The notes under the pieces: model-generated
Told to the model about the DNA's origin: nothing
The model's input: only the letters and a program-made list of their open reading frames with translations
Database searches by the model: none
Made by a program: the position numbers and the translations under genes
Source: Candidatus Pacearchaeota archaeon
GTDB taxonomy: Archaea > Nanobdellota > Nanobdellia > Pacearchaeales > GW2011-AR1
DNA: 64,000 nt
NCBI GenBank assembly: GCA_018303845.1
Contig: JAGVXH010000004.1
Location: forward strand, 197,165-261,164
Direction of reading: 5' to 3'
In this document: piece by piece, positions 8,068 to 59,259 of the stretch
How the letters are laid out: every line of letters starts with the position of its first letter
Numbering within the stretch: the first letter of the stretch is position 1

Positions 8068-8100
8068 TTATCCGTGCCAACCCGCGTAATCTGTGAGCTA
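8068..8100 (+). repeat. triple 9-10 nt repeat family, copy a (ttatccgtgccaacccgcgtaatctgtgagcta)
   Basis: Three tandem units of type AAYCYGYG(T) ending in GTGAGC, 5 nt after the stop of 7419..8063. Same + orientation as all other copies. Confidence 0.7.
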
Positions 8101-8164
8101 TTATCCATCCACCAAATCCTCTCTCCCAAAATCTTATAAACCAAAATCACACCCAATATTCTAT

Positions 8165-8238
8165 GAGGCTGTAGCGCAGCCAGGTAGCGCACTGCTCTGA
8201 TAAGGCAGGGGTCCCAGGTTCAAATCCTGGCAGCCTCA
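8165..8238 (+). tRNA. tRNA-Ile (anticodon GAT)
   Basis: Cloverleaf folded by hand. Acceptor GAGGCTG/CAGCCTC, D arm GCGC-AGCCAGGTA-GCGC, anticodon stem CTGCT/GGCAG with loop CTGATAA, T arm CCAGG-TTCAAAT-CCTGG, discriminator A. No encoded CCA. Confidence 0.85.
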
Positions 8239-8337
8239 TAAATGAAAATTTGAAACTGGGACATTGGTCCCTGGTTTAAAATTTCTTTAGAAATTTTAGA
8301 AACGAAGTTTCGTGTCCGAGCTTCTCCGAAGCGAAGG

Positions 8338-8357
8338 CAAATCCTGGCAGCCTCATA
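8338..8357 (+). repeat. perfect 20-bp duplicate of the tRNA-Ile 3' end (caaatcctggcagcctcata)
   Basis: Identical to 8221..8240 (T-loop, 3' T stem, 3' acceptor strand, discriminator). It lies 97 nt downstream of the first copy. Confidence 0.9.
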
Positions 8358-8491
8358 TTAATTTCAAAAAATAACCTAAATTAAAATATAAAATTTAACC
8401 AAGCCCCCACTTTAGTGAGCTTCTCCACGAAGTGAACTCCACCAATAAAGTTGAGCTATTCCATTCCAATGAGCTTTCCGCACGAAAGCGA

Positions 8492-9097
8492 CTATCCCCT
8501 CATCTCAACTGAAACCTTTTCCCTGTCAATCCTCATCCCTAAAATCTCAACTTTCATAGGAATTGTCTTAATATAACATTTGTCCCGAGCATATGCCCTA
8601 ATCTCAACCCCAGTTTCAAGTTCTGTTACAACAACATCTTCACTTTTTTGAATGCCAGGTGCCTCAATCTCATAAATAATCACATCCCCAAGTCTTTTAA
8701 CCCTAGACTCAGCATTAACTTTTTCCAAACTACTCCTTCTCTCTGCTTCTTCTCTAGAAACAACAATACTAGCCCTTCTTTTCTCAGAACCATTAGGAAC
8801 AACCTGTGGCCTCATAGGACCTCGCGCAATCTGAATCTTAAAATTCTTCGGCATCCCAGTCTTGCCATCAACCTCCATGTTTTCAAGTTGCTTCTCTAAT
8901 TGCTTAACTAAACTTCCCATAATCTTCTCAACACCAAATGGCAACCTCAACTCTTCTTCAACTCGACCAGAATCATCCATTCCCAACATCCCAAAATCCT
9001 CTTCGCTGCCAGCCTTCATGGACGCCCCACAGTGAGGACAATAGTTAAATTTCTTGTCAACTTTCTCCGCACAGCCTCGACACTTCTTAGCAAACAT
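8492..9097 (-). CDS. zinc-ribbon protein with Hsp20/alpha-crystallin-like C-terminal domain
   Basis: N-terminal CRGC...CPHC ribbon. The C-terminus GDVIIYEIEAPGIQKSEDVVVTELETGVEIRAY...IPMKVEI...VSVEMRG follows the alpha-crystallin-domain pattern. Confidence 0.6.
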   Translation of the reverse strand: MFAKKCRGCAEKVDKKFNYCPHCGASMKAGSEEDFGMLGMDDSGRVEEELRLPFGVEKIMGSLVKQLEKQLENMEVDGKTGMPKNFKIQIARGPMRPQVVPNGSEKRRASIVVSREEAERRSSLEKVNAESRVKRLGDVIIYEIEAPGIQKSEDVVVTELETGVEIRAYARDKCYIKTIPMKVEILGMRIDREKVSVEMRG

Positions 9098-9154
9098 TCA
9101 ATAGAAAAAAATTCTAACTACTTAAATCTTTGTAAACACAGTTAAAATTCCAAC

Positions 9155-10633: not shown

Positions 10634-10652
10634 AAAACCTATCCGACAGAAG

Positions 10653-13517: not shown

Positions 13518-13545
13518 AATCCGTGTAATCTGTGTAATCTGTGGC
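13518..13545 (+). repeat. triple 9-nt repeat family, copy b (aatccgtgtaatctgtgtaatctgtggc)
   Basis: Three tandem 9-mers in the gap between the stop of minD-like 13552..14304 and the start of 13095..13463. Confidence 0.85.
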
Positions 13546-13551
13546 TAAAAA

Positions 13552-14304
13552 TCACCTTCCAAAAACCCTAGAAAAAAACCCAACCCTCTCAACAACCATC
13601 TCCCCATTCACCTTCCGCGCAATCTCCAAATACTTCCGTGCAACCCGACTTCTAGGATGCGTATGCGAAACAGCATCCCTCAAATTCAAAGCCTCTTTAA
13701 CAGCCTTATCCTCAGGAACAACACCAATAATTTGTGCCTCAAGCATCGACTTAATAGAACTTAAAGGCATCTCATATTTCGCATCAGCATGTCGAGTAAC
13801 AATCACTCCATTAATTTCCTTGCCCATTTCCCTCGCAACCTTAACAGCCTTAAGCGCGTCAGTAACAGCTGGCATCTCAGGATTTGTAACAATAATAATT
13901 TCATCAGCACATTCCAAGACAGCAATAACTTCTTCCCCGAAACCAGCAGCAGAATCAATAATTACATAATCGCAAAGTTTTCCCAAAGCCTGAGTAATCT
14001 CTGGCAACTTCTTAACATTAAATTTAGTCAATTCCTTAATCGATAAACTCGACGGAACAATCTTCGTTCCAGAATGATGCTCGTAAATAGCGTCTTCAAT
14101 CTCAGCCTTCCCTTTCAAAACGTGATTCAAAGTAATAGGAACAATCGGAGCACCAAGTTGCAAACCAATGTTTGGCGTGTTCAAATTAGCATCAACAATA
14201 ATAACTTCCATCTTCAGTTTATTCAAACTCACACCCAAATTAATCGCAGTAGTAGTCTTCCCGACGCCGCCCTTCCCCGAATTTATCACAATTATCCTTG
14301 CCAT
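13552..14304 (-). CDS. minD: MinD/ParA-family P-loop ATPase
   Basis: Deviant Walker A SGKGGVGKTT near the N-terminus. 250 aa, MinD-like layout. Confidence 0.88.
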   Translation of the reverse strand: MARIIVINSGKGGVGKTTTAINLGVSLNKLKMEVIIVDANLNTPNIGLQLGAPIVPITLNHVLKGKAEIEDAIYEHHSGTKIVPSSLSIKELTKFNVKKLPEITQALGKLCDYVIIDSAAGFGEEVIAVLECADEIIIVTNPEMPAVTDALKAVKVAREMGKEINGVIVTRHADAKYEMPLSSIKSMLEAQIIGVVPEDKAVKEALNLRDAVSHTHPRSRVARKYLEIARKVNGEMVVERVGFFSRVFGR

Positions 14305-16574: not shown

Positions 16575-17441
16575 CTATTTCATCTGAAATCTATGCAAAC
16601 TTCCAGGATAAGGCCTACTGGAAACATTAATACCAGTCCCTTGACAAATTTTGTAAGAATAAATGCTTGTGGAATGATTTGTTCCTCTCATCTTGTAAAC
16701 CTCTAAAAATCTCTCTCTCTCTTTTTTAATCCTAGTAAAATAAAGCAGTATCAAAGAGTCCGCCTCAAACTCCAAAATTCTTGATGATTCTCTTTTGTCA
16801 ATTAGCGGATCCCTTTCATAAATTAAAAGCGAAGTGCAAGTCCAACTTCTCAAAAGTGAGAACAAAGCAAGTGTCTTTTCTCTCATTTCAACATCTCGAT
16901 CAAACAACATAACAAAAGCTGTAATACTATCAATTGCAATTCTTTTAATTTTCTTTGTCAAAACAATTGTCTCAATATCTCCGCCACCTTCTTCAAGCAT
17001 AGTTCTAATTTTTTCTGGCGTATATGATAAAAAGAAAAATTTCCCATTCTTTTCAGCTTCTTCTAAATCCCAGCCAAGTTCCGACATATTAATATAAAAT
17101 TCTTTCTTTTTCTCTTCAAAAGAAACATATAAAACATTTTCTCCTTTCTTCAGCCCTTCAATTAAAAATTGCGTGGCAAAAATAGACTTTCCATTCCCAC
17201 TTCCTCCGACGAGCAAATTAGTAGAATTTTTCTCGAAACCTCCCTCAATAACATTATCTAAATTGGCAATTCCAGTAGAAACTCTTTCAATATTATGCTT
17301 AGGTTTCTTTTTATTCAAACGACGGGATGTCCCAAGTTTACTTACTCCAATTTTTAAGTTCACTTTCTTTCCATCTTTAGCGATAACCCTCTTAGAAACC
17401 TTTTTCACAACCCTCTTAGAAACCTTTTTCTTAGTCACCAT
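16575..17441 (-). CDS. KaiC/RecA-superfamily ATPase (FlaH-like) with Lys-rich N-terminal extension
   Basis: GIANLDNVIEGGFEKNSTNLLVGGSGNGKSIFATQFLIEG (KaiC-type Walker A context). Walker B-like RIAIDSI. About 55 aa of K/V-rich N-terminus. Confidence 0.8.
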   Translation of the reverse strand: MVTKKKVSKRVVKKVSKRVIAKDGKKVNLKIGVSKLGTSRRLNKKKPKHNIERVSTGIANLDNVIEGGFEKNSTNLLVGGSGNGKSIFATQFLIEGLKKGENVLYVSFEEKKKEFYINMSELGWDLEEAEKNGKFFFLSYTPEKIRTMLEEGGGDIETIVLTKKIKRIAIDSITAFVMLFDRDVEMREKTLALFSLLRSWTCTSLLIYERDPLIDKRESSRILEFEADSLILLYFTRIKKERERFLEVYKMRGTNHSTSIYSYKICQGTGINVSSRPYPGSLHRFQMK

Positions 17442-28616: not shown

Positions 28617-28640
28617 CGTAGCAAACCCGCGTAACCACTT
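28617..28640 (+). repeat. repeat family, degenerate copy c (ccgtagcaaacccgcgtaaccac)
   Basis: AACCCGCGTAACCAC closely resembles copy j (AATCCGCGACTAACCAC). It lies in the divergent serS / wHTH intergenic region. Confidence 0.5.
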
Positions 28641-28765
28641 CAAAATGTTCTGTCACCAAACCCAAATTATGTCTCTACTAAAAGTGGACGAAATTCCCCC
28701 ACAAAACTTATAAGCCAATACTACTCTAATATATACATTGGAACATATACTTCCAGAAAAACAAA

Positions 28766-39557: not shown

Positions 39558-39600
39558 TTCCCACCTCTCAATTCAAAATAATCACAATAGTCAAGTCTTC

Positions 39601-39652
39601 CCAAACCCCCAAACCCCCAAACCCCCAAACCCCCATGAAAATCTCCGATTTT
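39601..39652 (+). repeat. (CCCCCAAA)4 + hairpin element, copy 1
   Basis: cc(aaaccccc)x4-atgaaaatctccgatttt. 51/52 identical to copy 2. Confidence 0.95.
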
Positions 39653-39681: not shown

Positions 39682-39733
39682 CCAAACCCCCAAACCCCCA
39701 AACCCCCAAACCCCCATGAAAATCTCTGATTTT
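39682..39733 (+). repeat. (CCCCCAAA)4 + hairpin element, copy 2
   Basis: cc(aaaccccc)x4-atgaaaatctctgatttt. The flank atgaaaatc-tct-gattttcat (39716-39736) is a perfect 9-bp inverted repeat overlapping the GDPD stop codon. Confidence 0.95.
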
Positions 39734-40940: not shown

Positions 40941-41517
40941 CTAAATGCCTCACACAGTTTAACAAAATTTCATTAAAGTTTTTATCTTCATCAATTTCAA
41001 AAATACTAATTGAAGTATTTCCCAAATTAGGAATATCTTTATGCTCACAATTCATTACATGTCTTAAAATATTCTTGCAGATTCCACTATGTCCAACCAA
41101 AAGAATATTTTCGAAATCCAAAGTCAAAATATAATTCAACAAATCTTTAGCTCTGGCAAGAATCTCTTCATGAGTTTCAACATCATCTCCCTTGATAACG
41201 TCAGCAATAAGCTTATCCTTTCCAATTCCCAAGTCTTCTTTTTCTCTTTTCCCTTGAAAACTTCCAAGATATCTTTCCCTCAATCTCTCATCAAACAAAA
41301 TTTCACAATCATGAAACCTCGCAACTTCTCTCGTCGTATCAACCGCTCGAGCCAAATCACTAGAAATAATCAAATCTATCTTTTCATCCTTTAATTTTTT
41401 CGCCAATCTCTGAGCCTGTTCCCTCCCTAAATCCGAAAGAACTCCAGGCAAATGTCCTTGAATAATTCCCGCCCGATTCTCTACTGTTTCTCCATGCCTA
41501 GTAATAATAAGCCTCAT
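40921..41517 (-). CDS. histidine phosphatase (phosphoglycerate mutase family)
   Basis: MRLIITRHGETVEN (RHG catalytic motif) and a later LLVGHSG. The internal ATG is preceded by GGAGG. Confidence 0.85.
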   Translation of the reverse strand: MRLIITRHGETVENRAGIIQGHLPGVLSDLGREQAQRLAKKLKDEKIDLIISSDLARAVDTTREVARFHDCEILFDERLRERYLGSFQGKREKEDLGIGKDKLIADVIKGDDVETHEEILARAKDLLNYILTLDFENILLVGHSGICKNILRHVMNCEHKDIPNLGNTSISIFEIDEDKNFNEILLNCVRHLDENSEI

Positions 41518-41540
41518 CCCAAAACCTCCCAACTCAAAAA

Positions 41541-41571
41541 GTCCGCGTTAGTCCGCGTTAGTCCGCGTGCC
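41541..41571 (+). repeat. triple 10-nt repeat family, copy d (gtccgcgtta x2 + gtccgcgtgcc)
   Basis: Three tandem 10-mers in the 55-nt gap between two minus-strand genes. Confidence 0.85.
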
Positions 41572-41572
41572 A

Positions 41573-42208
41573 TTATTTCCCTTCCCTCATCAATTTATTC
41601 ATCTCATCATAAGAAATCCTAAACCCATAAACTCTTTCAAACAAATCATAAAACTGATCCTCACTTTTAATAGAACCCAATCCTTTCAAAAGCTCCAATA
41701 CATTTTCTTTACCAAATTCTTCAACTAAAATCTTAACAACAAATCCAGATTCATTATAAACAAATTTTCCATATTCGCCATAAAAATCCAAAAAGTTAAC
41801 AAACTTTTCAGGACAAGTTCGAGTCTTGTATTGCCCAGCCAAATAAAGTGCCAATCCCTCACTTAACCAAACAGGAGTATGCGAATAATGAAAAAGATTC
41901 CAAAAGGAGTGCGTAAGTTCGTGTTTAATTAGCATAAAAAATCTTTCATCAGAATAGATATGACCATCAGCATCTTTCTCGTAAGCTTCAGGATCTAAAA
42001 GATAAATAGAGTCATTACATGCAAAAGCAATTTCCCAACCATCAGTTTCTTTATCTCTAATAGAGTTGTAAGTCTTTCTGTCAGGAACAAAAACAATTTT
42101 AGTCCTATTCATAATCCAATCTCTCTCAAAAAATTCATCTAATTCCTTCATTGCCCGCTCATAAAATTCATCAAATTTCTCATTCTTAATTTTCTCAATC
42201 TTAAACAT
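41573..42208 (-). CDS. putative HExxH zinc metallopeptidase (peptidase MA-like)
   Basis: LIKHELTHSFWNLF ... WLSEGLALYLAG (HExxH plus a downstream Glu). Internal ATG chosen just after the upstream stop. Confidence 0.6.
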   Translation of the reverse strand: MFKIEKIKNEKFDEFYERAMKELDEFFERDWIMNRTKIVFVPDRKTYNSIRDKETDGWEIAFACNDSIYLLDPEAYEKDADGHIYSDERFFMLIKHELTHSFWNLFHYSHTPVWLSEGLALYLAGQYKTRTCPEKFVNFLDFYGEYGKFVYNESGFVVKILVEEFGKENVLELLKGLGSIKSEDQFYDLFERVYGFRISYDEMNKLMREGK

Positions 42209-43208
42209 TTTTTCCCTCCTCCCCCAACTTCCGAATCCGCGCCACGAAAAATCCGTCGGTATCATTATCCTGCGGGTACAGCCTCAAACACTTACTAACT
42301 TCATCTGAAAACTTCTCTCCTTCCCATTCACAAACCCCGCTTCTAAACTTCAAAGGCAAACTCAATTTTTCAACCTCACAATCAAACTTCCTAAGTAAAG
42401 AATTAACCGTCATCTCATTTTCTTCCGGACTCAAAGTGCAAGTCGAATAAATCATAACCCCGCCAACTTTTAGCAAATTAAACGCAGCCCCAGCTAGCGC
42501 CCTTTGAGTCTTCGCAATCTTTCTAATCATATGTGGATTCCACATCTCAAAAGTCTTAGGACTCTTCCTCAAAGTCCCCTCCCCCGAACAAGGCGCGTCC
42601 ACCAAAATCTTATCAAACCTAAACTGCGACTTCTTAAACAGCCTATCACAAAGCGCAACGCCTTCCATCCGACAAACAATCGTATTCATGACCCCACACC
42701 TTTCCAAATTAGAATTCAAAATCCCAATCCTCCCCATGTTCAACTCATTTGCCAAAATAAACCCGCCATTCCCCATCATCGCTGCGGCTTGCGTAGTCTT
42801 ACTCCCAGGCGAAGCACACAAATCCAAAACATGGTCTCCCTCCTCAGGACGCAAAGCCATCATCGGAAGCATAGAAGAAATTTCCTGAACATAATAATAC
42901 CCAAGCAAATGCTCCCTAGTCTTCCCCAAATCCCCAGGAAGAGGCCCAGAATCCACAATCATTACCTCGGGAAAATCCTTAAACGGCTGTCGAACAACCC
43001 ATCCATAATTCTGCAATCTCTTAAGCAACTCCTTAGCATCCATCTTCAAAGTATTACACCGAATCGAGCTAGGACACTTAGTATAAGAAATATCAAAAAA
43101 TTCCTTCGCTCCAGCCTCACCTAAAAGCACCTCCATCTTTTTCACAAAACCTTCTTTCGGAGGAAACTTCTCTCTCAAGTACGCAGAATAACTCTTCCGT
43201 TCATCCAT
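42201..43208 (-). CDS. NOL1/NOP2/Sun-family RNA cytosine-C5 methyltransferase
   Basis: VLDLCASPGSKT (SAM site), ILVDAPCSGEGT (motif IV), MIYSTCTLSPEENE (motif VI), C-terminal TDGFFVARIRK. Confidence 0.9.
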   Translation of the reverse strand: MDERKSYSAYLREKFPPKEGFVKKMEVLLGEAGAKEFFDISYTKCPSSIRCNTLKMDAKELLKRLQNYGWVVRQPFKDFPEVMIVDSGPLPGDLGKTREHLLGYYYVQEISSMLPMMALRPEEGDHVLDLCASPGSKTTQAAAMMGNGGFILANELNMGRIGILNSNLERCGVMNTIVCRMEGVALCDRLFKKSQFRFDKILVDAPCSGEGTLRKSPKTFEMWNPHMIRKIAKTQRALAGAAFNLLKVGGVMIYSTCTLSPEENEMTVNSLLRKFDCEVEKLSLPLKFRSGVCEWEGEKFSDEVSKCLRLYPQDNDTDGFFVARIRKLGEEGKNV

Positions 43209-43248: not shown

Positions 43249-45183
43249 CTACTCAAAAAACACCTGCGAAACTCCCCTCACTTTTCCAACCCTACCAACC
43301 ATCCAACAAACATCATCAAGCCCTCGAGGGATAACAACAAAATCACATTCAACATCCCCATTTCCAACAATTCGCGCATTCGCACTCCGAACAACAAACC
43401 CACCTCTCGAAATCGTATTCAACAAATCTGCCAAAATCCCACTCCTGTCTCCGCAAAGAGCTTTAAGTCTCAAAGGTCGATTAAACTTTTCCTTCCAAAA
43501 AACAGGAACAGCATTTTTCAAATTTCCAGCAAGTCGCGGACAATCACTTTTATGAACCAAAATCTTTTTCTGCGATTTCGCAACCCCAAGCAACTCGTCT
43601 TTCGGTAAAGGGTAACAACACTTCGCAAAAGAAAAATCACTTCGCAAAAAATCAGCAGATTCAACCAAGCTATCAAAATCCCTCTCGTCGCCAATCAAAA
43701 TATTCGGTTTCTTCGGAACAGGAATAGATTCATATCTTTTAATCCCCTGTCTAATCTTAGATTTCGCTCTAGATGAAACAACAAACTTCAACCAGTCCCT
43801 TCGTGGCCTCTGATTCTTATTGGTCAAAATCTCAACAACACATCCATTCTTCAAGACTTCCTTCAACGAAACAAATTTCCCATCAATCCTCCCGCCAATA
43901 GCCCGCTCTCCAATCTGCTGATGAATTGAATAAGCAAAATCCAAAAGCGTAGCGTCCTTAGGAAGTTCACGGACATCGCCCTTTGGAGTATAGCAATAAA
44001 TTTTATCCGCAAACAAATCAAGTTTCAAATTCTTCATAAATTCTTTATCAGTTGAATCCCTCTGCGACTCCATCAAAGCCTTCATCCATCCAACCTTCTT
44101 CTCAAAACCAGCATCTCCAGAAACACCCTTATAATTCCAATGAGAAGCAATCCCCTCCTCTGCCTCTTCGTCCATTTTCTCAGTCCTAATCTGCACTTCA
44201 ATTTCCTTAGCATTCTCGTCTCCTGCCTCCCGTTTCCCATCCGCATTTCCAACAGACACCCGCACGACCGTATGAAGCGACTGGTATCCACTAAGTTTTG
44301 GAGAATTAATATAATCTTTTAATCTCCCCTCAACCGGAATAAATCTTTCGTGCAAAATCCCAAGCACATCATAGCAATCTCGCTCTCCCTTAACGATAAT
44401 CCTAATCGCATAATGATCTTTCTGTTTGCTAAGCGGCTCGCCCCTTTTATGTATTTTATCAAAAATACTTTTAATCTGTTTATTTCTCCCCTTAATTTTC
44501 ACAACTCCAACTCGTGGTTTCAAAATCTCTCCAAGTTCCTCAATAAACTTCCTAAGAAATTCTTCTCGTTCACTTTTCGTCTCCTTAAAAAAATTAGAAA
44601 TCTCTTCGTACTTTCGCGGGTGAAGTGTCTTAAACGCAAGGTCTTCCAAATTATTTTTAATATAATCAAGCCCAAGCCTCATCGCCAAAGGAACATAAAT
44701 CTCCAAAATATCCTCGGCAATTCGCCTTTGCTCCTTTTCTTTTAACGCAGAAATAATTCTCAAATTCGCAAGCTTAACAGCAAGCTTAACAAAAACAACT
44801 CGAACATCATCAAGCCCAGTAAGCAAAATCTTCCTAACCATTTCCGCCTGAACCAAAGTATTATTCTTTTTTATTACCCGAAGTTGCAACTGCCCAAAAA
44901 CAATTTTAGCAATCTCTTCACCAAACTCCATAGCAATATCTTTGAAGGCAAGGTCCTTTTCAACGCCATACAAAATACCAGCGACTACAATTTCAGCAGA
45001 TAAACCACTCATGACCAAAATCTCTCCAACGTCAAGATTAAATTCAGAAAGCGGCGTCCTAGAAAATTCTTTTTCTCCAACCAGATTTAGCTCGACAAAT
45101 TCAATCGACTTATTTATCAATCGCAGATCCTTATTAGAATATTTTCTCTCGCAAAGTTCAAGAAATCTTTCCTTATTTTTCAT
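43249..45183 (-). CDS. long RelA/SpoT homologue ((p)ppGpp synthetase; hydrolase domain apparently degenerate)
   Basis: Synthetase motifs GRNKQIKSIFDKI, DHYAIRIIV, YINSPKLSGYQSLHT, EVQIRTEKMDEEAEEGIASHWNYKG. TGS domain (IYCYTPKGDVRELPKDATLLDFAYSIH). CC/zinc-finger region (AKCCYPLP). ACT/RRM-like C-terminus. The HD signature position reads GILYGVEKD instead of LLHDxxED. Confidence 0.88.
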   Translation of the reverse strand: MKNKERFLELCERKYSNKDLRLINKSIEFVELNLVGEKEFSRTPLSEFNLDVGEILVMSGLSAEIVVAGILYGVEKDLAFKDIAMEFGEEIAKIVFGQLQLRVIKKNNTLVQAEMVRKILLTGLDDVRVVFVKLAVKLANLRIISALKEKEQRRIAEDILEIYVPLAMRLGLDYIKNNLEDLAFKTLHPRKYEEISNFFKETKSEREEFLRKFIEELGEILKPRVGVVKIKGRNKQIKSIFDKIHKRGEPLSKQKDHYAIRIIVKGERDCYDVLGILHERFIPVEGRLKDYINSPKLSGYQSLHTVVRVSVGNADGKREAGDENAKEIEVQIRTEKMDEEAEEGIASHWNYKGVSGDAGFEKKVGWMKALMESQRDSTDKEFMKNLKLDLFADKIYCYTPKGDVRELPKDATLLDFAYSIHQQIGERAIGGRIDGKFVSLKEVLKNGCVVEILTNKNQRPRRDWLKFVVSSRAKSKIRQGIKRYESIPVPKKPNILIGDERDFDSLVESADFLRSDFSFAKCCYPLPKDELLGVAKSQKKILVHKSDCPRLAGNLKNAVPVFWKEKFNRPLRLKALCGDRSGILADLLNTISRGGFVVRSANARIVGNGDVECDFVVIPRGLDDVCWMVGRVGKVRGVSQVFFE

Positions 45184-48169: not shown

Positions 48170-48609
48170 AGGGCTAAAATGAGAAATACCATAGAGACTA
48201 TGAAAAGTATCATAGAGCTCAATATCACAATTTTATAAAATTTTAATTTTTTATCTTTTTCATTCAAATGTAAAATAAAGCTAAAAAATGCATAAGGATT
48301 ATATCTGGTATATTCCGGCATTTGTTTTGAGATAAAAGGGATTTCGGTCATATCTGTTAACTTATCTAGATATTTATGATTCTTGTTCTTTAAGTGTAAA
48401 TACATCTTAAAATTAAGATTATAAGATAAAAAGAGAAGAGCTATTGCTAATATATTAAAAAATATTTCAAGTAAATAAAAAGTAGACATCTCTCCTTTTA
48501 TCATTCCATAGATTATGGCTCCTTGTATTATTATGAATATCGGTAGGCCAAAAATGATGATTGCTATCAAAAAACCCCTCCACAAAGCATAGTTTTTTTT
48601 ATTCTTCAT
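48166..48609 (-). CDS. 4-TM membrane protein, candidate immunity protein for the RHS C-terminal domain
   Basis: Lies immediately downstream of the RHS ORF and overlaps it. Four hydrophobic segments. Visibly more AT-rich than its neighbours. Confidence 0.5.
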   Translation of the reverse strand: MKNKKNYALWRGFLIAIIIFGLPIFIIIQGAIIYGMIKGEMSTFYLLEIFFNILAIALLFLSYNLNFKMYLHLKNKNHKYLDKLTDMTEIPFISKQMPEYTRYNPYAFFSFILHLNEKDKKLKFYKIVILSSMILFIVSMVFLILAL

Positions 48610-50162
48610 TCTTTAGACTCTCCAAATATTTTATTATTAGAGCTAGTAAATACTGAGTTCATTGAACATGAAGGCTGGTTAGCATTGATGACATTATTTA
48701 AACCAGAAGTACTTTCTAAAGTTGTAGTGGATGTTGTGAGATATGCAGAGGCCGGAACTGGTGCATTAAAATCTGCAGACAAAGTCACTCCGATAGAAAA
48801 TCCACTCCACTCCACCTTATTATTCTTAATAGGGTAACTAAATCCGAAACCCGCACTATATCCTTCACCGAAATCTACACCACCTTCAGCAGTATCGCCC
48901 TGGAAATCCGCAATATTTGACCTAAAAGGAACAATACCGAATTCAGTACCAACACTTGTTGTTGGAGTCATTAAGCCAATACCTTCTCTATTGTAATTGT
49001 CAAACTCGAGTCCATTAGAGAAACTAATACTTGCAACTCTACCCCCAGCTCCAGAAACACCTGCTCCAGATCCAGCAGCGCCTTGTCCTCCCCAGTACAC
49101 CAAGACATGCCCCGAAGGATCAGTATAACTATAAGGATTCCCCTTCTCAAACATATACCTATTCAACTGCTGAGGATCATAAACATCAGGTAACATACTA
49201 TCAGCCTGAACAAAAATTCGCTTCGAGGGATCATAATACCTAAACCCATAATAATAAAGCCCAGTCTCATCCAACTCTTTATTTTCATAAAGCTTCTTAT
49301 CTGATTCTCCACCTTCCAAAACCCCACCAAACGGCAAATAACTAGTATCTTCAACAACCTCCCCACTTTCATCCGTAATCAAACTCGTACTCCCTAAATG
49401 GTCACTATGATAAAACCACTTACTACCATCTGGATTTATCCTAGCAACCAAAACATCTCCATCATAAACATAACTAAAATTAAACCTCCCGCTCTCATTA
49501 ACAATAACCATCACTTCTTTAAACGGCGTATACACAGTCTCATTCTTCACCATATTGTAAGTCTTAACTCTCACCCCCAAATGATCGTAACTATACTCTT
49601 CTAAAATATCACCACTTATATTATTACCGCTTCTAACCCGAACCAACTGCCCAAACTCATTCCACTCCCGATAATAACCATCTCCAGTCACCAAATTACC
49701 TCCTCCAAAAGTATGATTAACCAAATTCCCATTTCCATCATAACTAAAATTCACCCAACCAACATCAGGACTCTTCTCAGCTATCTTCCTTCCAAGAGAA
49801 TCAAACTCAAAAACCCAATCATTCCCCAAATCGTCCTCAATCCCAACCAAATTCCCAAGCGAATCATAACTATAAGAAGTAGTATAAGTCTCGTTATCAT
49901 TATACTCTCTAACCCCTAACACCTCTCCCCTAACACCTAGCGTTCGGTCAACCCGATTCCCATTCTCATCAAACAAACTAGCATCAAGCCCAGAATAATT
50001 AAAATTCTTTGACGTATTGTCTTGATTGGTTATCTTAGTAACCCTGTCAAGAATATCATACCCCACCTCAAAACAAAAAATTTGTGAGCATTCGTGTAAT
50101 TCGTGGATAAAAACCAACCTACCCAAAAACCAACCGTTTAAACTCAGGCTTCGCTCCACCAA
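48606..50162 (-). CDS. RHS/YD-repeat polymorphic-toxin fragment (5'-truncated, possibly a pseudogene) with unclassified Gly-rich C-terminal domain
   Basis: YD repeats (YSYDSLGNLVGIED, FEFDSLGRKIAE, FSYDGNGNLVNH, YSYDHLGVRV). RHS core end GLYYYGFRYYDPSKRIFVQADSMLP...YTDPSGH. Then about 190 aa of Gly-rich tail. The first about 30 codons read through the GxxExxY 3' end and repeat copy e. The start codon is TTG, and there is no ATG until about codon 205. Confidence 0.75.
   Translation of the reverse strand: MVERSLSLNGWFLGRLVFIHELHECSQIFCFEVGYDILDRVTKITNQDNTSKNFNYSGLDASLFDENGNRVDRTLGVRGEVLGVREYNDNETYTTSYSYDSLGNLVGIEDDLGNDWVFEFDSLGRKIAEKSPDVGWVNFSYDGNGNLVNHTFGGGNLVTGDGYYREWNEFGQLVRVRSGNNISGDILEEYSYDHLGVRVKTYNMVKNETVYTPFKEVMVIVNESGRFNFSYVYDGDVLVARINPDGSKWFYHSDHLGSTSLITDESGEVVEDTSYLPFGGVLEGGESDKKLYENKELDETGLYYYGFRYYDPSKRIFVQADSMLPDVYDPQQLNRYMFEKGNPYSYTDPSGHVLVYWGGQGAAGSGAGVSGAGGRVASISFSNGLEFDNYNREGIGLMTPTTSVGTEFGIVPFRSNIADFQGDTAEGGVDFGEGYSAGFGFSYPIKNNKVEWSGFSIGVTLSADFNAPVPASAYLTTSTTTLESTSGLNNVINANQPSCSMNSVFTSSNNKIFGESKE
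50081..50110 (+). repeat. triple repeat family, copy e (tttgtgagcattcgtgtaattcgtggataa)
   Basis: Lies 8 nt downstream of the GxxExxY stop codon. It contains AATTCGTGGATAA (50098-50110), identical to 50540-50552. Confidence 0.85.
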
Positions 50163-50481
50163 AATTAAAAATCAACCCAACCCTTTTTCCAGTCCCCCTC
50201 AAATAATTCAAAAGCTGAGCCTCATCAACCCCGTTCAAATTACTCTTAGCCTTAATTTCAACCACAACATTTCCCACGATAAAATCCGCAACATAGTCTC
50301 CAACCACCTTACTCTTGTAACAAACCTCAATAGGGACTTGGCTTCCAAAACCAATTCCCAAACTAGAAAATTCAACTTTCATAGCATTCTCATAAACCTT
50401 CTCTAAAAACCCAGACCCAACAACATTATAGACCTCATAATAAGCTCCGATAATATCCTTGGTGCCATCATCAAACTCCAT
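50119..50481 (-). CDS. GxxExxY protein (PD-(D/E)XK nuclease-superfamily small protein)
   Basis: KDIIGAYYEVYNVVGSGFLEKVYENAM (the G-x-x-E-x-x-Y signature), then DFIVGNVVVEIKA (D...E.K nuclease-like core) and QLLNYL. The first ATG gives MEFDDGTK. Confidence 0.85.
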   Translation of the reverse strand: MEFDDGTKDIIGAYYEVYNVVGSGFLEKVYENAMKVEFSSLGIGFGSQVPIEVCYKSKVVGDYVADFIVGNVVVEIKAKSNLNGVDEAQLLNYLRGTGKRVGLIFNFGGAKPEFKRLVFG

Positions 50482-50520: not shown

Positions 50521-50552
50521 AATTCGTGACCATCCGCACAATTCGTGGATAA
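50521..50552 (+). repeat. triple repeat family, copy f (aattcgtgaccatccgcacaattcgtggataa)
   Basis: Lies 40-70 nt upstream of the GxxExxY start. It contains the second copy of AATTCGTGGATAA. Its GTG is the spurious ORF-track start of hydB. Confidence 0.85.
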
Positions 50553-50616
50553 TATTTTATCATCCCTCCCCAAAAACCTTATAACCAACCCCAACCTAAA
50601 AACAAAGAGGTGCCCA

Positions 50617-51561
50617 ATGCAAAAGATAATCCCTAAATCAGATTTCCCAAAATTCATAAACAACCTAATAAAATCAAACCTCGTCATAGCCCCAATATTC
50701 GCCCCCGACACAAAATTCCAAAAAGTAAAATCCTTCGACGAAATATATCTAGACAAAATAACTTGGATTCCAGCAAAACAACATTTCCAACCAGAGCAAG
50801 AAACCCTCCTAGAATTCAAGAAAAACAAGCCAACAGAACTAGAAGGACAGATCCCAAAAACAATCCTCTTCGGACTAAGGAAGTGCGACCTGAACGCAAT
50901 CCAAGTTCTAGACAAAGTAATGTATGATAAACAGTATCTAGCAAAAAGAAAAAACACTGTCCTAATAGGCATCCACTGCGAAACTCGGGACAAATTCTGT
51001 TTCTGCAATTCAATGGAGCTCCAAAACTTCCACGACCTCTACATATTCCCAAAAGGAAAAAACTACATAATAGACGTCCAAGGAGAAAAGGGAAAAGCCC
51101 TAGTAGAAAATCTTCAAACACTAGAAAAAGAACTTCCAATTCCAATTCCAAAGAACTCAAAAAAATTAAAAAATCTTAACATAGCAAAAAATTACAAAGA
51201 TTCAATCTGGGAAGCTGACACCTCCAACTGTTTATCTTGCTCAGCCTGCACCGTATACTGTCCAACCTGCAACTGTTTCGACATCAAAGATAACCTTAAC
51301 ATCGACCTAAAATCAGGAACAAGAACTCGTAGCTCCTCATCTTGCCAACTAAAATCCTTCTCCAAAGTCGCCGGAGGAAAGTCCTACAGAGACTCCCGCC
51401 TCTCCCGTTTCAAACATTTCGTCTACCACAAAATCTCATATTTCAAATCCCAACACGGTCGCCCAATGTGTGTCGGATGTGGAAGATGTCTTCGAGTCTG
51501 CCCAACAAAAATCGACTGGGTCAAAACAATAAATAAACTGCCAAAAAAGAAGAATGGATGA
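50617..51561 (+). CDS. hydB: sulfhydrogenase beta-type subunit (4Fe-4S ferredoxin-domain protein)
   Basis: ATG 50617 is preceded by agaggtg. Two ferredoxin-type cluster motifs, CLSCSACTVYCPTCNC and CVGCGRCLRVCP. It sits upstream of the gamma, delta and alpha subunits, as in Pyrococcus hydBGDA. Confidence 0.78.
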   Translation: MQKIIPKSDFPKFINNLIKSNLVIAPIFAPDTKFQKVKSFDEIYLDKITWIPAKQHFQPEQETLLEFKKNKPTELEGQIPKTILFGLRKCDLNAIQVLDKVMYDKQYLAKRKNTVLIGIHCETRDKFCFCNSMELQNFHDLYIFPKGKNYIIDVQGEKGKALVENLQTLEKELPIPIPKNSKKLKNLNIAKNYKDSIWEADTSNCLSCSACTVYCPTCNCFDIKDNLNIDLKSGTRTRSSSSCQLKSFSKVAGGKSYRDSRLSRFKHFVYHKISYFKSQHGRPMCVGCGRCLRVCPTKIDWVKTINKLPKKKNG

Positions 51562-52321
51562 AAAAATAAAAAACATAGTAGAAAAATTCCTTAAAAGTTG
51601 GAAAGAATTAGATAAAGTAAGTGCAGTAATTATTTGCGGAAGTTATGTAACGGGAAACCCAACAAAACATTCCGACATAGACGTCCAAATAATTCTTAAA
51701 AATGGAACAAAATGGAGAGAAAGAGGAAATAAAATAATAGATGGAATACTTTTAGAATATTTTGCAAATCCGAAAAGTGAAATATTGAGGTCTATGGAAA
51801 AAGAATTCTTAGAAAGAGATAGGGCTACTGCACATATGTTTTTTACAGGGGAAATTATAATGGATAAATTTAGCGAAGCAAAAGAATTAAAAAAATTGTC
51901 AAAAAAATATTTATCAAAAAATTATAAGTCAACAAATAAAGTAAAAATAGGTTCGGAGAAGTATTCATTATGGGATATGCAAGATAATTTAGAGGAAGTC
52001 TATGAAAAACAATTAGGAGATTTTAGATTTGTTTATTATAACTATATGTCAAATATTTTTTCAAATTATTGCGAATATATCGGATTCCCAGAAGTGCCAA
52101 ATAATAAAATTCTAAGATTTTTAACGGATAAAAATGATAGAAAAAAATATATAATTCCAGAATTTCCAGACAAGAAATTCATAAAAATATTTTCTAAGAT
52201 GATAAAATTAAAAGAAGAAGAGAAGATGGTGAATGAATATAAAAAAATAACAAAACATGTCATAGGTAAAATGGGGGGCTTCTCAATAAATGATTTTAAG
52301 CAGAGGTTGAAAATAAAATGA
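51554..52321 (+). CDS. Pol-beta-superfamily nucleotidyltransferase (KNTase-like), inserted within the hydrogenase operon
   Basis: SAVIICGSYVTGNPTKHSDIDVQII (G-S ... D-x-D NTase motif) plus a helical C-terminal half. 8-nt overlap with the hydB stop. Confidence 0.72.
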   Translation: MDEKIKNIVEKFLKSWKELDKVSAVIICGSYVTGNPTKHSDIDVQIILKNGTKWRERGNKIIDGILLEYFANPKSEILRSMEKEFLERDRATAHMFFTGEIIMDKFSEAKELKKLSKKYLSKNYKSTNKVKIGSEKYSLWDMQDNLEEVYEKQLGDFRFVYYNYMSNIFSNYCEYIGFPEVPNNKILRFLTDKNDRKKYIIPEFPDKKFIKIFSKMIKLKEEEKMVNEYKKITKHVIGKMGGFSINDFKQRLKIK

Positions 52322-52326: not shown

Positions 52327-52356
52327 AAATTCGTATGCATTCACGTAAATTCGCGG
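52327..52356 (+). repeat. triple repeat family, copy g (aaattcgtatgcattcacgtaaattcgcgg)
   Basis: Three ATTCRYG-type units 6 nt after the NTase stop. Confidence 0.7.
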
Positions 52357-52387: not shown

Positions 52388-52433
52388 CCAAACCCCCAAA
52401 CCCCCAAACCCCCAAACCCCCAAAATCGGAGGG
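52388..52433 (+). repeat. (CCCCCAAA)4 element, copy 3, ending in aaaatcggaggg
   Basis: cc(aaaccccc)x4 then aaaatcggaggg. The GGAGG lies 7 nt before the hydG ATG. Confidence 0.95.
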
Positions 52434-53997: not shown

Positions 53998-55262
53998 ACC
54001 TTAACCACATTTGTAAAATAGAAGGGCACGCAAGTTTAAATTTAAAGATAGAAAAAAATAGAGTCATAAAATGCGAACTTAAAGCTTCAGAAGGAGCAAG
54101 ATTCTTCGAAGCGTTAGTCCTCGGAAGAAACATCGAAGACATTCAAGAAATCGTCTCCAGAATTTGCGGCATCTGTTCCTGCTCTCATTCAGTCGCCTCA
54201 GTCCAAGGGTTAGAAGAGGCTTTAGGCATTAAACCTTCAGAGCAACAAAAATTCATAAGAGAAATTCTTCTTCTGGCAGAACGAATCCGAAGTCATGCAA
54301 CACATCTTTATTTCCTTTCTCTTCCAGATTATCTAGGAGCGTCCTCGGCGATAACATTAAAACAAGAACATAAATCAAAAGTTCTAGACGCTCTAAAAAT
54401 AGTGACGCTTGGAAATAAAATAGTAGAAAAATTCGGAGGCAGAGAAATGCACCCATTTTTAAAAATCCAAGAAGAGTTAAGAAAGGAAAACTTCGAAGAA
54501 TTAATCGCTCAATTAAAAGAAACAAAACCCCTAATCCTAAAAACAATAGAACTCTTTAATAATTTAGACTATCAAAAATTAGAAAGAAAATCAGAATATC
54601 TTTCTTTAAACGAAAAAGACAAATATGCCAACGTCTCAGGAAAAATCTATGCTGGAAAAGAAACCTTCGTAGATGACGACTATAAAACTCATCTTGCCGA
54701 AAATATCAAAGAATACGCAACGTCAAAATTCGTCCTTCATAACAAACACACATTTTCAGTAGGTGCAACTGCCAGGATTTCGAATAACCACAATCAACTA
54801 GATTTAGAAACAAAAAAAGAATTATCAAAAACAAAAATAACTTTCCCCATAACAAACCCACATCACAACTTAATCTGCCAAGCCTTAGAAATATTAAATG
54901 CAGTCAGCAGAATAACAGAATTGCTTCAGTCGCCCCCAACCCCCCAAACTTCAAACCCCCAAACCCCCAAACTTCCAAACCACCAAAACGGGACAGGAGT
55001 TTCCGCTGTTGAAGCCCCACGTGGCACTCTCTTTCACGAATACAAAATAAACAAATCTGGAATAATAGAATATTGCAACATAATAACTCCAACGGCGCAA
55101 AATCTCAATATAATGGAATCCGACATAACTCTTCTAGTAAACATTCTACTAGAACAAAAGACTTCACAAAAAGAAATCGTAGAACAAATAGAAAAATTAA
55201 TCCGTTCCTACGACCCATGTTTTAGTTGCTCAACACATTTTCTAAAAGTCAACTGGATATAA
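53982..55262 (+). CDS. hydA: [NiFe] hydrogenase large (alpha-type) subunit
   Basis: N-terminal RICGICSCSHS (RxCGxCxxxH). EAPRGTLFHEY. C-terminal DPCFSCSTH (DPCxxCxxH). Contains the repeat-derived insert PPTPQTSNPQTPKLPNHQ. Confidence 0.92.
   Translation: MAREINLNHICKIEGHASLNLKIEKNRVIKCELKASEGARFFEALVLGRNIEDIQEIVSRICGICSCSHSVASVQGLEEALGIKPSEQQKFIREILLLAERIRSHATHLYFLSLPDYLGASSAITLKQEHKSKVLDALKIVTLGNKIVEKFGGREMHPFLKIQEELRKENFEELIAQLKETKPLILKTIELFNNLDYQKLERKSEYLSLNEKDKYANVSGKIYAGKETFVDDDYKTHLAENIKEYATSKFVLHNKHTFSVGATARISNNHNQLDLETKKELSKTKITFPITNPHHNLICQALEILNAVSRITELLQSPPTPQTSNPQTPKLPNHQNGTGVSAVEAPRGTLFHEYKINKSGIIEYCNIITPTAQNLNIMESDITLLVNILLEQKTSQKEIVEQIEKLIRSYDPCFSCSTHFLKVNWI
54933..54993 (+). 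repeat. degenerate (CCCCCAAA)n element inside the hydA CDS
   Basis: cccccaaccccccaaacttcaaacccccaaacccccaaacttccaaaccaccaaaacggga. The tail aaaacggga resembles the aaaatcggaggga tail of copy 3. Confidence 0.8.
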
Positions 55263-55290
55263 TCTGTGTCAATCCGTGTAATCTGTGGCC
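55261..55290 (+). repeat. triple 9-10 nt repeat family, copy h (aatctgtgtcaatccgtgtaatctgtggcc)
   Basis: Lies between convergent hydA and the protease gene. The last codons of the protease ORF (ATDYTD) are read from it. Confidence 0.85.
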
Positions 55291-56617: not shown

Positions 56618-56676
56618 TACATATCAAGGATATTCAAAGTTAAAAACGTTCCTACCCAAGTTAAAATAAATTATAT

Positions 56677-57309: not shown

Positions 57310-57311
57310 CT

Positions 57312-57788: not shown

Positions 57789-57803
57789 CTAACAATTAAA
57801 AAC

Positions 57804-58733
57804 CTATCCCAAGCAAGAACCCTTATTGTATACATCATCAAAAACATTACTCAACTGATGAACCACAACCTTACCATTATTAAAATCCTCATTATTAAAA
57901 ACAATCTCAGGGCAATCCCATCCAGTTCGAAATCCATTCAACTTCTCAATATCACTACTCCTCATCTTAAAATCCAAAGCCCCAAGATTCTCATCAATAT
58001 GCTTCAAATTACTAGATTTAGTTAATGGTAAAAATCCACGAGAAATAAGCCAATTAAAAATAATCTGATTCTGTGTCTTCCCATACTTCTCACTCAACTC
58101 CACTAACAACGGCCAATTTCTAGCAATAGTTTTATTTCTCCGAATAGGCTGATAAATAACATTCAAAATATTATTTTCATCCGCAAACTCAATAATACCC
58201 ATATGCTCATTTTCTCTAATCTCAAAATTAAAATTCAACTCATGACAAAACATCTTGTCTCCAAAAATTTCTTTAAACTTTTTCAAATACTTCAAATCAG
58301 AATTAGTAATACTAACAAACTTAGTTTCTCCAGACTCCAAAACATCCTTCAAGAATTGAGCAACATTATCAAAACCATATTTTTCAATACCAGTAACATC
58401 AAACTCAACAGAATCCATATAATTAGTATCCAAGATTTCTCTAACCTTTTTCATTTCCTTCCTAACATCCTCCAATGTCTCATTCTTATAACAATAAAGA
58501 GCCTGATGTAAAAACAACTTCTCCCTATCAACTCCAGATTTCTCAATAGCTTCAGCCAAAAGCTCCACATTATGCCCCTCGGAATTCCAATAATTGACCT
58601 CAATAAAATTCATCCCCTTCTTCAAAGAATAAACCAAAGCCTCAATATCTTTCTTATCATTTCCAGAATCTTTCTTAGCGAACCCACCAATACCCCATCC
58701 ACCAATACCAATTGGAAAAATATTTTTATCCAT
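57804..58733 (-). CDS. aldo/keto reductase
   Basis: IGIGGWGIGG N-terminus. (beta/alpha)8 AKR-like length and layout (..FIEVNYWNSEGH.., ..QPIRRN..). Confidence 0.72.
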   Translation of the reverse strand: MDKNIFPIGIGGWGIGGFAKKDSGNDKKDIEALVYSLKKGMNFIEVNYWNSEGHNVELLAEAIEKSGVDREKLFLHQALYCYKNETLEDVRKEMKKVREILDTNYMDSVEFDVTGIEKYGFDNVAQFLKDVLESGETKFVSITNSDLKYLKKFKEIFGDKMFCHELNFNFEIRENEHMGIIEFADENNILNVIYQPIRRNKTIARNWPLLVELSEKYGKTQNQIIFNWLISRGFLPLTKSSNLKHIDENLGALDFKMRSSDIEKLNGFRTGWDCPEIVFNNEDFNNGKVVVHQLSNVFDDVYNKGSCLG

Positions 58734-58808
58734 ATAAGATATTTAAATAAAAACATTAAATACTTTCGGGCTCACTTTGAGCTCATACCATGCGTATACC
58801 AAAACAAA

Positions 58809-58837
58809 AATCTGTGTAATCTGTGTAATCTGTGGCC
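58809..58837 (+). repeat. triple 9-nt repeat family, copy i (aatctgtgtaatctgtgtaatctgtggcc)
   Basis: Three tandem 9-mers 10 nt downstream of the second GxxExxY stop. Confidence 0.9.
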
Positions 58838-58847
58838 AATTTTTTCC

Positions 58848-59230
58848 TCACCCAAAAACCATTCTTTTAATCCCAGCCTCTTTACCAAAGTTTAACAACA
58901 ACCCAACTTCAATTCCAGTAGCCTTCAAATAATTAATCAATTGCGCTTCTTCGGACCCACAAAAATTATTCAAGGCCTTAACTTCAACAATTACTTTCCC
59001 GTCAACAATAAAGTCTGCAAAATAATCTCCCATAATCTTATTCTTATAAAAAACTCTAACAGGAGCTTGCTTAATAAAACTCAAACCAGCTTCAGAAAAT
59101 TCTAAAGCCAAAGCGTTCTCATAAATTTTTTCCAAAAATCCAGAACCCAAAGTATTATACACACGATAAAAACATCCAATAATTTCTCAGTCAATTCCTT
59201 ATGTTTGTATTCTTCCATTTCAAAATCCAT
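58848..59230 (-). pseudogene. GxxExxY protein, second copy, with an N-terminal frameshift
   Basis: The body YRVYNTLGSGFLEKIYENAL...DFIVDGKVIVEVKA...QLINYL is intact from 59162 (GTG). ATG 59230 opens MDFEMEEYKHKELTEK in another frame. The frames meet at the A3 run at 59183-59185; one extra A would restore ..KELTEKIIGCFYRVYN.. as in copy 1. Confidence 0.7.
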
Positions 59231-59237
59231 ATCGATT

Positions 59238-59259
59238 CACATAATCCGCGACTAACCAC
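59238..59259 (+). repeat. repeat family, degenerate copy j (cacataatccgcgactaaccac)
   Basis: Lies 8 nt upstream of the second GxxExxY ATG. Closely resembles copy c. Confidence 0.5.

Follow-up and report, generated by a model that had tools for sequence, protein, structure and literature searches.

The stretch of DNA analysed here, 64,000 nucleotides (nt) of contig JAGVXH010000004.1 from a Candidatus Pacearchaeota archaeon (hereafter, the window), contains two small genes of the GxxExxY family and, dispersed between its genes, a short composite repeat of three tandem units of 9-10 nt, some copies of which flank these two genes. We call a three-unit copy an arm; on the - strand, the arms read GGCCACAGATTACACAGATTACACAGATT, followed by a T-run, and this direction is denoted '<-' below, with '->' for the opposite one. 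Loci retrieved from other genomes are designated by L and a number. The window has a G+C content of 37.5%, and the same sequence is present in a 206-kb metagenome contig (ENA ERZ27254746 k141_33989). Its archaeal genes include those for TBP, ribosomal protein L15e, an ATP-dependent DNA ligase and FlaI/T2SSE, accompanied by T2SSF pilus/archaellum genes, two CDC48 genes, a phosphoenolpyruvate (PEP) synthase gene and a sulfhydrogenase operon.

The + strand of the window is C-rich, with a GC skew of -0.2 to -0.57 where the genes are on the - strand and of about 0 to +0.1 where they are on the + strand; in related Nanoarchaeota-like contigs, the skew on the gene strand is +0.33 to +0.6. This pattern implies a strong coding-strand G bias combined with a replichore-type bias. 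Across 79 kb (the window and 15 kb more of the contig), no switch of the skew was detected, and the added 15 kb contained no further arms.

The triple repeat and the GxxExxY genes of the window

A sequence-only reading of the window had listed ten copies of the repeat. All ten sequences are present at the listed positions (Table 1), and eight of them are credible; those at 28617 and 59238 are degenerate or weak. The copies at 13518, 41541, 55261 and 58809 are clean tandem arrays that are detected by Tandem Repeats Finder, and those at 8068, 50081, 50521 and 52327 are degenerate yet recognisable three-unit arrays. As that reading had it, all eight credible copies point the same way on the + strand, and every copy is either intergenic or clips the end of an open reading frame (ORF). 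The unit that it gave, WAYYCGYG, is at odds with the best copies (AATCTGTGT); an improved unit is ATYNGYG with a period of 9-10 nt, the last unit closing with GTGG and being followed by an A/T-rich run. Compared with 100 dinucleotide-preserving shuffles of the window, clusters of at least three YYGYG units in 34 nt were found six times on the + strand (0.05 expected) and three times on the - strand (2.6 expected, that is, the chance level), and ATYYGYG x3 was found four times on the + strand (0.00 expected) and not at all on the - strand. The AATCYGTG string itself occurs 11 times on the + strand and once on the - strand. Thus, the repeat is far above chance and confined to one strand of the window. 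Composition works against the motif because a G-containing motif sits here on the G-poor strand.

Both GxxExxY genes belong to PF13366/TIGR04256, and, in agreement with the sequence-only reading, two pairs of copies bracket them, with one arm within 10 nt of the stop codon and a second arm upstream of each gene. The product of gene #1 ends with ...RLVFG and, like it, the product of gene #2 ends with ...VFG, encoded in both cases by GGTTTTTGGG, which we refer to as the last-codon box. When read on the - strand, the stop codon of gene #1 is followed by 10 nt, arm 50081 and T6, and that of gene #2 by 10 nt, arm 58809, a T-run and a TATA-like box for the aldo/keto reductase gene. Upstream of gene #1, arm 50521 lies in the divergent gap between this gene and the sulfhydrogenase operon, with another last-codon box beside it (50569-50576). 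Copy 59238, which consists of one good and two decayed units, is located where the 5' arm of gene #2 is expected. In gene #2, the intact ORF spans 58848-59162 (104 aa), and an alignment with the homologue in L207 places approximately the first 12 codons out of frame through a 1-nt deletion (GAGAAA-TTATTGG at 59163-59201 on the - strand), together with the conserved N-terminus MEEYKHKELTEK. Gene #2 is a truncated gene or else a recent pseudogene.

PF13366/TIGR04256 is a large family represented in Bacteria, Archaea and some viruses. In the alignment of GxxExxY proteins, E27, D66 and K77 are invariant and E75 is conserved in at least 90% of the sequences, an E...D...ExK pattern that matches the signature of PD-(D/E)XK nucleases. 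The AlphaFold2 model of the protein is confident (predicted local distance difference test score, pLDDT, 92.8), and its best fold matches in the PDB are Cas4 SSO0001 (E = 1e-4, TM 0.6) and lambda exonuclease; a sequence search detected no solved structure of a GxxExxY protein. The family is absent from the PADLOC (defence) and PHROGs (phage) libraries. Its function is listed as unknown, and multiple transfers between Bacteria and Archaea have been described in a survey of the superfamily (PMC3424549).

Five window arms are located 0-35 nt past the stop codon of a - strand gene, and two of these genes are the GxxExxY genes. The further claim that the polarity of the repeat is independent of transcription is based on two degenerate copies, 8068 and 52327, the other six credible copies lying directly 3' or 5' of - strand genes. 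Arm 8068 is found ~65 nt upstream of the tRNA-Ile gene, with + strand neighbours on both sides, and arm 52327 separates the NTP_transf_2 gene from the gamma-subunit gene within the hydrogenase operon, which is on the + strand. On the - strand, arm 13518 comes after the stop codon of a ParA/MinD-type gene and before a T-run and the next - strand gene. Arm 55261 is located between convergent genes and overlaps the stop codons of both, the hydrogenase large subunit gene (+) and a 121-aa gene (-), and arm 41541 occupies a 56-nt gap between the - strand genes for a Peptidase_MA-like protein and His_Phos_1. In L003, from a strain that is 94-99% identical, the His_Phos_1 gene, the arm and the Peptidase_MA-like gene are all missing, and a 92-aa ORF is found instead (window 40941-42227 corresponds to L003 9046-9340). 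A unit nearly identical to that of arm 41541 (ACGCGGATTA, three times) makes up a solo arm within the hydrogenase operon of L206 (17089-17115).

Two of the solo arms are accompanied by short strings resembling the end of a GxxExxY gene. Next to arm 13518, the relic of the last codons (GGTTTTTGG, 13558-13565) lies past the stop codon of the ParA gene and is non-coding, and it is as far from the arm as its counterparts in complete cassettes. Near arm 8068, there is a TTTTGGG box (CCCAAAAT on the + strand, 8125-8132), and the box and spacer at this site resemble the 3' module of the GxxExxY gene of L207. The distance between box and arm is slightly longer at 50521 than at 13518 and longer still at 8068. 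Because the boxes by 13518 and 8068 match the last codons of the genes, the solo arms that bear a box retain a remnant of the 3' terminus of such a gene.

Single arms do not form a hairpin: five window arms, folded as single-stranded DNA (ssDNA), had predicted energies between 0 and -3.6 kcal/mol (z-scores, -1.5 to +1.3). Among Rfam covariance models, none matched the arms, and only tRNAs and one thiamine pyrophosphate (TPP) riboswitch were detected in the window and 18 loci. Two '<-' matches, at 28101 on the + strand and at 56863 on the - strand, are chance hits within coding DNA, and a likeness of some arm ends to the DnaA box (TGTGGATAA) was dropped, being limited to a few copies in a host that is an archaeon.

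Table 1. Arms, GxxExxY genes and other mapped features of the window and of related loci
Feature	Sequence	Position	Strand	Units or remarks
Solo arm, degenerate	window	8068..8098	+	TTATCCGTGCC AACCCGCGT AATCTGTGAGC
Solo arm	window	13518..13545	+	AATCCGTGT AATCTGTGT AATCTGTGG
Weak copy, ~1.5 units	window	28617..28647	+	AAACCCGCGTAACC; resembles 8068; detected by none of the three-unit patterns
Solo arm, three perfect 10-nt units	window	41541..41571	+	AGTCCGCGTT
3' arm of cassette #1	window	50081..50108	+	units ATTCGTG; orthologous arm in L206
5' arm of cassette #1	window	50521..50549	+	AATTCGTGACC ATCCGCAC AATTCGTGG; orthologous copy in L206
Solo arm, degenerate	window	52327..52356	+	followed by (CCAAACCC)x4.6 tract
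Solo arm	window	55261..55290	+	AATCTGTGTC AATCCGTGT AATCTGTGG
3' arm of cassette #2	window	58809..58837	+	AATCTGTGT x3, perfect
5' arm of cassette #2, degenerate	window	59238..59268	+	- strand reads GTTAGTCGCGGATTATGTGAATCGATATGGATTTTG; abuts DeoC stop codon
GxxExxY gene #1	window	50119..50481	-	120-aa predicted PD-(D/E)XK nuclease; PF13366 E=5.5e-34, TIGR04256 E=5e-34
GxxExxY gene #2	window	58848..59201	-	PF13366 E=1.3e-35; TIGR04256 match
GxxExxY gene site	window	between DeoC and aldo/keto reductase gene		
GxxExxY gene site	L206			none between DeoC and TIM
GxxExxY gene site	L207, L208, L214	between TIM and HypA		
C-rich tandem tracts	window	37461-37495, 39600-39635, 39682-39716, 52388-52424, 54933-54987		C-rich on +
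PF05635 gene	L207	4330-4695		
PF05635 gene	L212	5526-5891		
PF05635 gene	L209	6365-6724		
PF05635 gene	L214	18626-19009		
PF05635 gene	L219	5813-6178		~4.7 kb past the right end of the window

GxxExxY genes and arms in other genomes

Scanning Joint Genome Institute (JGI) metagenomes with an alignment of four GxxExxY proteins yielded 80 loci, of which 75 could be evaluated for arms; to count as significant, arms had to exceed the best score of 30 shuffled controls by 3 or more. Significant inverted flanking arms, each consisting of about three tandem 8-10-nt units, were found at 43 of the 75 loci, and direct or nested arms at 18. On inspection by eye, nearly all genes have a '<-' arm 10-40 nt before the start codon and a '->' arm at or just past the stop codon. 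The density of three-unit arms is 2.7/kb within 160 nt of the gene vs 0.18/kb elsewhere (~15-fold), so that the enrichment next to GxxExxY genes for which the sequence-only reading had proposed a test was indeed observed, in a form stronger than its wording, the arms being part of the cassette. Upstream of the genes, 20 arms point '<-' and 7 '->'; downstream, 34 point '->' and 11 '<-'. The span bounded by terminal inverted repeats (TIRs) has a median of ~500 bp, for a gene of ~370 bp, and the outer ends of the bacterial cassettes read ..GGMCAC and GTGKCC... The units differ between elements (CACAGAT, CGCAGAT, CACGGAT, CACGAAT, CACAGAC, CGCAAAT and others) and are alike in the two arms of one element. 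The unit type tracks the protein clade: mean protein identity is 0.59 between elements of the same unit class and 0.52 between different classes, reaching 0.70 in the GAC class. Plasmid records annotate the gene merely as "GxxExxY protein", with no mobile-element feature.

The arms were also sought directly. The pattern AATCYGTG-N(1-3)-AATCYGTG was scanned against one genome per species (185,579 species), and at least 120 stretches were recovered; the chance expectation for a 16-base pattern in 596 Gb is a few thousand matches. The following observations are all on the matches listed. Of 152 matches, 54% fall in arrays of at least three units, vs a chance expectation of 4%, and many end like the window arms, with ...GTGG followed by an A-run; because of this excess of arrays and the common ending, the matches are not attributable to chance. 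They come from Bacteroidota, Verrucomicrobiota, Planctomycetota, Acidobacteriota, Cyanobacteria, Chloroflexota, Spirochaetota, Desulfobacterota and others, as well as one Methanoperedens. The commonest bacterial layout is an inverted pair, '<-' and '->' separated by a 3-200-nt spacer, with outer ends CCAC/GTGG, and there are 48 '<- ->' pairs within 200 nt. Gene-less, multi-copy elements similar to miniature inverted-repeat transposable elements (MITEs) are present in L013, a contig of Prevotella, and L075 has six of them in an array. Among the genes next to bacterial arms, gene ends face the arm 115 times and gene starts 75 times. When larger autonomous elements were sought between inverted arms 0.25-1 kb apart, GxxExxY was the only real case, the other candidates being false positives of a loose detector. 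Most bacterial arms have no gene of this family beside them, as the gene was present at 2 of the 120 arm loci listed; both of these genes are exactly bracketed by inverted three-unit arms, in one case with the unit TTTGCGC. Taken alone, the count of 2 of 120 would suggest arms unlinked to GxxExxY, a view that was overturned by the gene-first test, in which the genes are nearly always bracketed.

In archaeal relatives of the window, the prevailing arrangement is a direct one. The two cassettes of the window share the '<- gene <-' layout with L126, L206, L212, L213 and the two genes of L214; high-skew contigs of the Nanoarchaeota-like kind have the gene on their G-rich strand and a '<-' arm, instead of '->', downstream of it. 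On the gene strand, the archaeal 3' module consists of the last codons (GGTTTTTGGG and the stop codon), a 10-25-nt spacer, the arm and a T-run, frequently with a TATA-like box for the next gene. This module is duplicated as 50-75 nt in L126 and L213, and the duplicated module of L213 takes in the T-run and the TATA-like TTTAATTAG as well as the leader, as far as the next start codon. In L206, a second 3' module follows the complete cassette and is truncated (last codons, spacer, one unit and T-run). The inverted arm is not absent from all such DPANN-type genomes: in L209, '<- gene <-' is followed after 45 nt by '->', and L215 has canonical inverted arms. An apparent opposite-strand arm in L126 (4054) is a chance match within coding DNA.

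The GxxExxY genes of these archaea occupy different sites (Table 1), with one copy, next to the hydrogenase operon, common to the window and L206. The differing sites constitute insertion polymorphism between genomes whose DeoC proteins are ~80% identical. The comparison of orthologous regions that the sequence-only reading had suggested thus revealed the gene at different sites in relatives; a clean occupied/empty pair was not among them.

The cassette interpretation and its alternatives

Most likely, the triple repeat is the terminal arm of a compact selfish cassette, the sole gene of which encodes the 120-130-aa GxxExxY nuclease. This assignment follows from the gene-first survey, which shows the bracketing of the genes, the arm density, the orientation of the arms and the length of the span. 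What the observations show is the architecture of the cassette and how widely it occurs, together with derivatives that lack the gene, relics and differences in position among relatives. Of the options considered in the sequence-only reading, a site belonging to the GxxExxY cassette was essentially right: in the window as in bacteria, the repeat forms the terminal module of this cassette, where it may act as an att or homing target or as a transposon end. For the most part, the uniform orientation in the window would have a simple source: the two arms of each cassette are co-oriented, and all cassettes, ~12 of which were seen in the archaeal lineage, are on the G-rich strand, which bears most of the genes.

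Several findings weigh against this interpretation. The 80 metagenome loci were the nearest ones to the query, at 46-59% identity, and do not represent PF13366 as a whole, and 14 of the 75 evaluable loci have no significant arms, several of these showing inverted arms below the threshold. No target-site duplication was visible at the outer ends of 48 TIR-bounded elements, the boundaries of which are fuzzy. An occupied/empty pair with identical flanks was not recovered among the compared genomes, with their DeoC identity at the level given above. Solo arms 41541, 52327 and 55261 do not have the last-codon box. Direct-repeat variants exist outside archaea too, as in a Fusobacteria plasmid (L216, CP102406.1, 1300-2000), where direct '->' arms lie on both sides (AATCRGTGAAAAT...CAGATTTAATCCGTGTACCTAT). 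In the structural model, the protein amounts to a nuclease core alone and lacks a distinct domain for DNA binding. Action of the nuclease on its own arms is our inference, suggested indirectly by the link between unit type and protein clade.

Among the alternatives, host transcription is an unlikely source of the arms, which would in that case be signals such as terminator/promoter insulators or binding sites for a host factor that co-occur with GxxExxY through shared intergenic gaps. Indeed, in the archaeal lineage, a T-run, which in archaea signals termination, comes after every arm on the gene strand, and a TATA-like box for the next gene is often present as well; the duplicated module of L213 takes in the promoter-like TTTAATTAG and a leader; and the bacterial arms favour gene 3' ends (115 ends vs 75 starts among the matches listed). 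However, GxxExxY genes are bracketed by this three-unit architecture also in phyla whose transcription machinery is unrelated, the unit sequence follows the protein clade rather than the host, and gene-less inverted pairs and arrays are typical of mobile repeats. The two views are also compatible, given that a cassette may bring its own terminator and promoter. Quite unlikely, too, are ends of MITEs or transposons that a conventional transposase moves in trans with GxxExxY as a passenger. The arms do look like terminal inverted repeats with subterminal repeats, the organisation of the ends of Mu, Tn7 and IS21, many copies are gene-less, and the nuclease has no obvious DNA-binding domain. Yet neither the window nor the Pfam tables of the retrieved loci yielded a transposase, GxxExxY is the only gene family precisely bracketed by arms among the matches listed, and a cassette with a median span of ~500 bp has no room for another gene beside one of ~370 bp. 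Specifically, the scanned window ORFs included no transposase, integrase or HUH gene, and the Pfam table of L001 contained no Y1_Tnp.

A chromosome-polar signal of the FtsK-orienting (KOPS) or Chi type, with its orientation set by the replichore, is improbable and, with it, the replication-polar option of the sequence-only reading is not needed. The eight credible window copies are co-oriented, six arms in 33 kb of a related genome share this orientation relative to the G-rich strand, and 3 of 14 arms (8068, 52327 and L206:17089, the last one within a reversed hydrogenase operon) have no co-oriented neighbour, both adjacent genes being on the opposite strand. These three arms are suggestive of a strand preference for insertion or retention and are too few for a replication-linked rule. 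Against a polar signal stand the low frequency of the repeat, about one copy per 8 kb (8 in 64 kb), its restriction to intergenic DNA and the variability of the unit; KOPS and Chi are short fixed oligomers that are frequent, including in coding DNA. Furthermore, the bacterial arms are mainly inverted pairs, as counted above among the matches listed, the DPANN locus L209 has a '->' arm on the G-rich strand, and the direct-repeat design together with cassettes on the G-rich strand accounts for the polarity. Finally, there is virtually no chance that the motif is a by-product of the composition of a skewed, AT-rich genome. Given the extreme strand asymmetry, a reader of the + strand spots G-containing repeats more readily, but six clusters were found where 0.05 were expected, the G-rich - strand is at chance level, and the motif recurs beside homologous genes in unrelated genomes. 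Chance and composition as the origin of the motif, also entertained in the sequence-only reading, are refuted by the dinucleotide-preserving shuffles and this recurrence.

Under the cassette interpretation, the nuclease, probably in oligomeric form, would bind its own arms at their tandem units, three per arm and about one helical turn apart, and would cut at or near the arms. In bacteria, such cutting would drive transposition; in the archaeal form, it would drive homing, gene conversion or Campbell-type insertion at an existing arm, and insertion into such an arm or next to it would produce the '<- gene <-' layout. The solo arms could be leftovers of recombination between direct repeats, like solo long terminal repeats (LTRs), or, equally, docking sites for new insertions. 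The T-run and the promoter-like box would allow the cassette to sit between genes without disturbing them.

Parallels with known systems exist, although none is complete. Like the repetitive extragenic palindromes (REPs) with their associated tyrosine transposases (RAYTs) and bacterial interspersed mosaic elements (BIMEs), the arms are short, dispersed and intergenic, are tied to and flank a gene for a small single-domain nuclease, are mostly present without this gene, and form arrays (here in L075). However, RAYT is an HUH/Y1 enzyme (PF01797), whereas the genes flanked here encode predicted PD-(D/E)XK proteins of PF13366, and REP is a single imperfect palindrome with a conserved GTAG, in contrast to three tandem direct units with no fold of their own. 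The IS200/IS605 elements are similarly very small, and the strand bias in the window recalls their ssDNA-dependent insertion, although this bias has a simpler explanation here; they differ in having HUH TnpA, TnpB and subterminal hairpins, none of which was found, and in the absence of tandem-repeat ends. Of the REP/RAYT or IS200/IS605-like option in the sequence-only reading, the analogy of a dispersed repeat with a small nuclease gene stands, and the HUH gene and the hairpins do not.

The bacterial cassettes share TIRs, a single small gene and multi-copy gene-less derivatives with insertion sequences (IS) and MITEs, and several tandem sites per end with Mu, Tn7 and IS21. Classical IS elements encode a DDE, serine or tyrosine recombinase rather than a 120-aa nuclease core; no target-site duplication was detected here, and the archaeal arms, including all of those in the window, are direct, unlike the terminal inverted repeats of the bacterial relatives. 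Homing endonuclease genes, including that of the PD-(D/E)XK enzyme I-Ssp6803I, are also minimal selfish nuclease genes with a patchy distribution across sites in relatives; by this analogy, the solo arms could be the recognition or landing site, and the flanking repeats could provide the homology for copying. Homing genes, however, have one conserved target (an intron, an intein or a specific gene), whereas the cassettes occupy many unrelated intergenic sites and have their own repeated ends. The archaeal form, with a gene between direct 50-75-nt modules and solo arms as candidate recombination products, resembles solo LTRs and Campbell-type attL-attR systems, but has no associated integrase or reverse transcriptase.

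A broader proposal, which we advance tentatively, is that GxxExxY cassettes represent an unrecognised class of autonomous mobile DNA of ~500 bp, with an arm-recognising 120-aa nuclease, MITE-like derivatives in many bacterial phyla and a direct-repeat variant in DPANN that carries its own terminator and promoter. If so, these would be among the smallest self-mobilising elements known, and a very large family of 'unknown function' would gain one, as the nuclease of a minimal selfish element. Widespread intergenic tandem and inverted repeats of Bacteroidota, Planctomycetota, Verrucomicrobiota, Acidobacteriota, Cyanobacteria and others would be explained, a substrate for biochemistry would be defined, and a nuclease that reads short tandem repeats could serve as a tool. 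The archaeal variant would illustrate how a cassette fits into a tightly packed, strand-biased DPANN genome, apparently by means of its own T-run and promoter-like box. Our searches of the open-access literature detected no published account of the repeat strings or of repeats or mobility linked to GxxExxY/PF13366, in agreement with the sequence-only reading, which took the motif to be undescribed; a prior description elsewhere is possible.

Other repeats and genes in the window and its relatives

Small genes of PF05635 (23S_rRNA_IVP, or bAvd-like four-helix-bundle, proteins) recur in these DPANN genomes (Table 1). Those of L207 and L212 are preceded by 3-4 copies of GGGTGGCTC, spaced ~20 nt apart, and PF05635 genes with such repeats may be a second family of small repeat-associated cassettes.

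The window also contains tandem (CCCAAACC)n and (CCGAACCC)n tracts, each 4-7 copies long, whose C-rich strand is always the + strand; one of these abuts arm 52327, two are 47 nt apart, and some lie inside predicted ORFs. The GGGTTTGG repeats on the - strand of these tracts could form G-quadruplexes. Among the neighbouring genes, an NTP_transf_2 gene (weakly MntA-antitoxin-like) at 51554-52321 is located between the sulfhydrogenase beta- and gamma-subunit genes, as it is in L206. Two genes of bacterial type were identified, one encoding a RelA/SpoT-family (p)ppGpp synthetase/hydrolase with a TGS domain (43249-45183) and the other an RHS/YD-repeat protein (48606-50162), directly downstream of GxxExxY cassette #1. 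Elsewhere in the window, there are a 21-nt tandem repeat x3 at 63749-63810 (TTTTGCTTTCTCCTTGGCAAT, 92% match) and a perfect 24-nt repeat x1.9 at 17385-17430.

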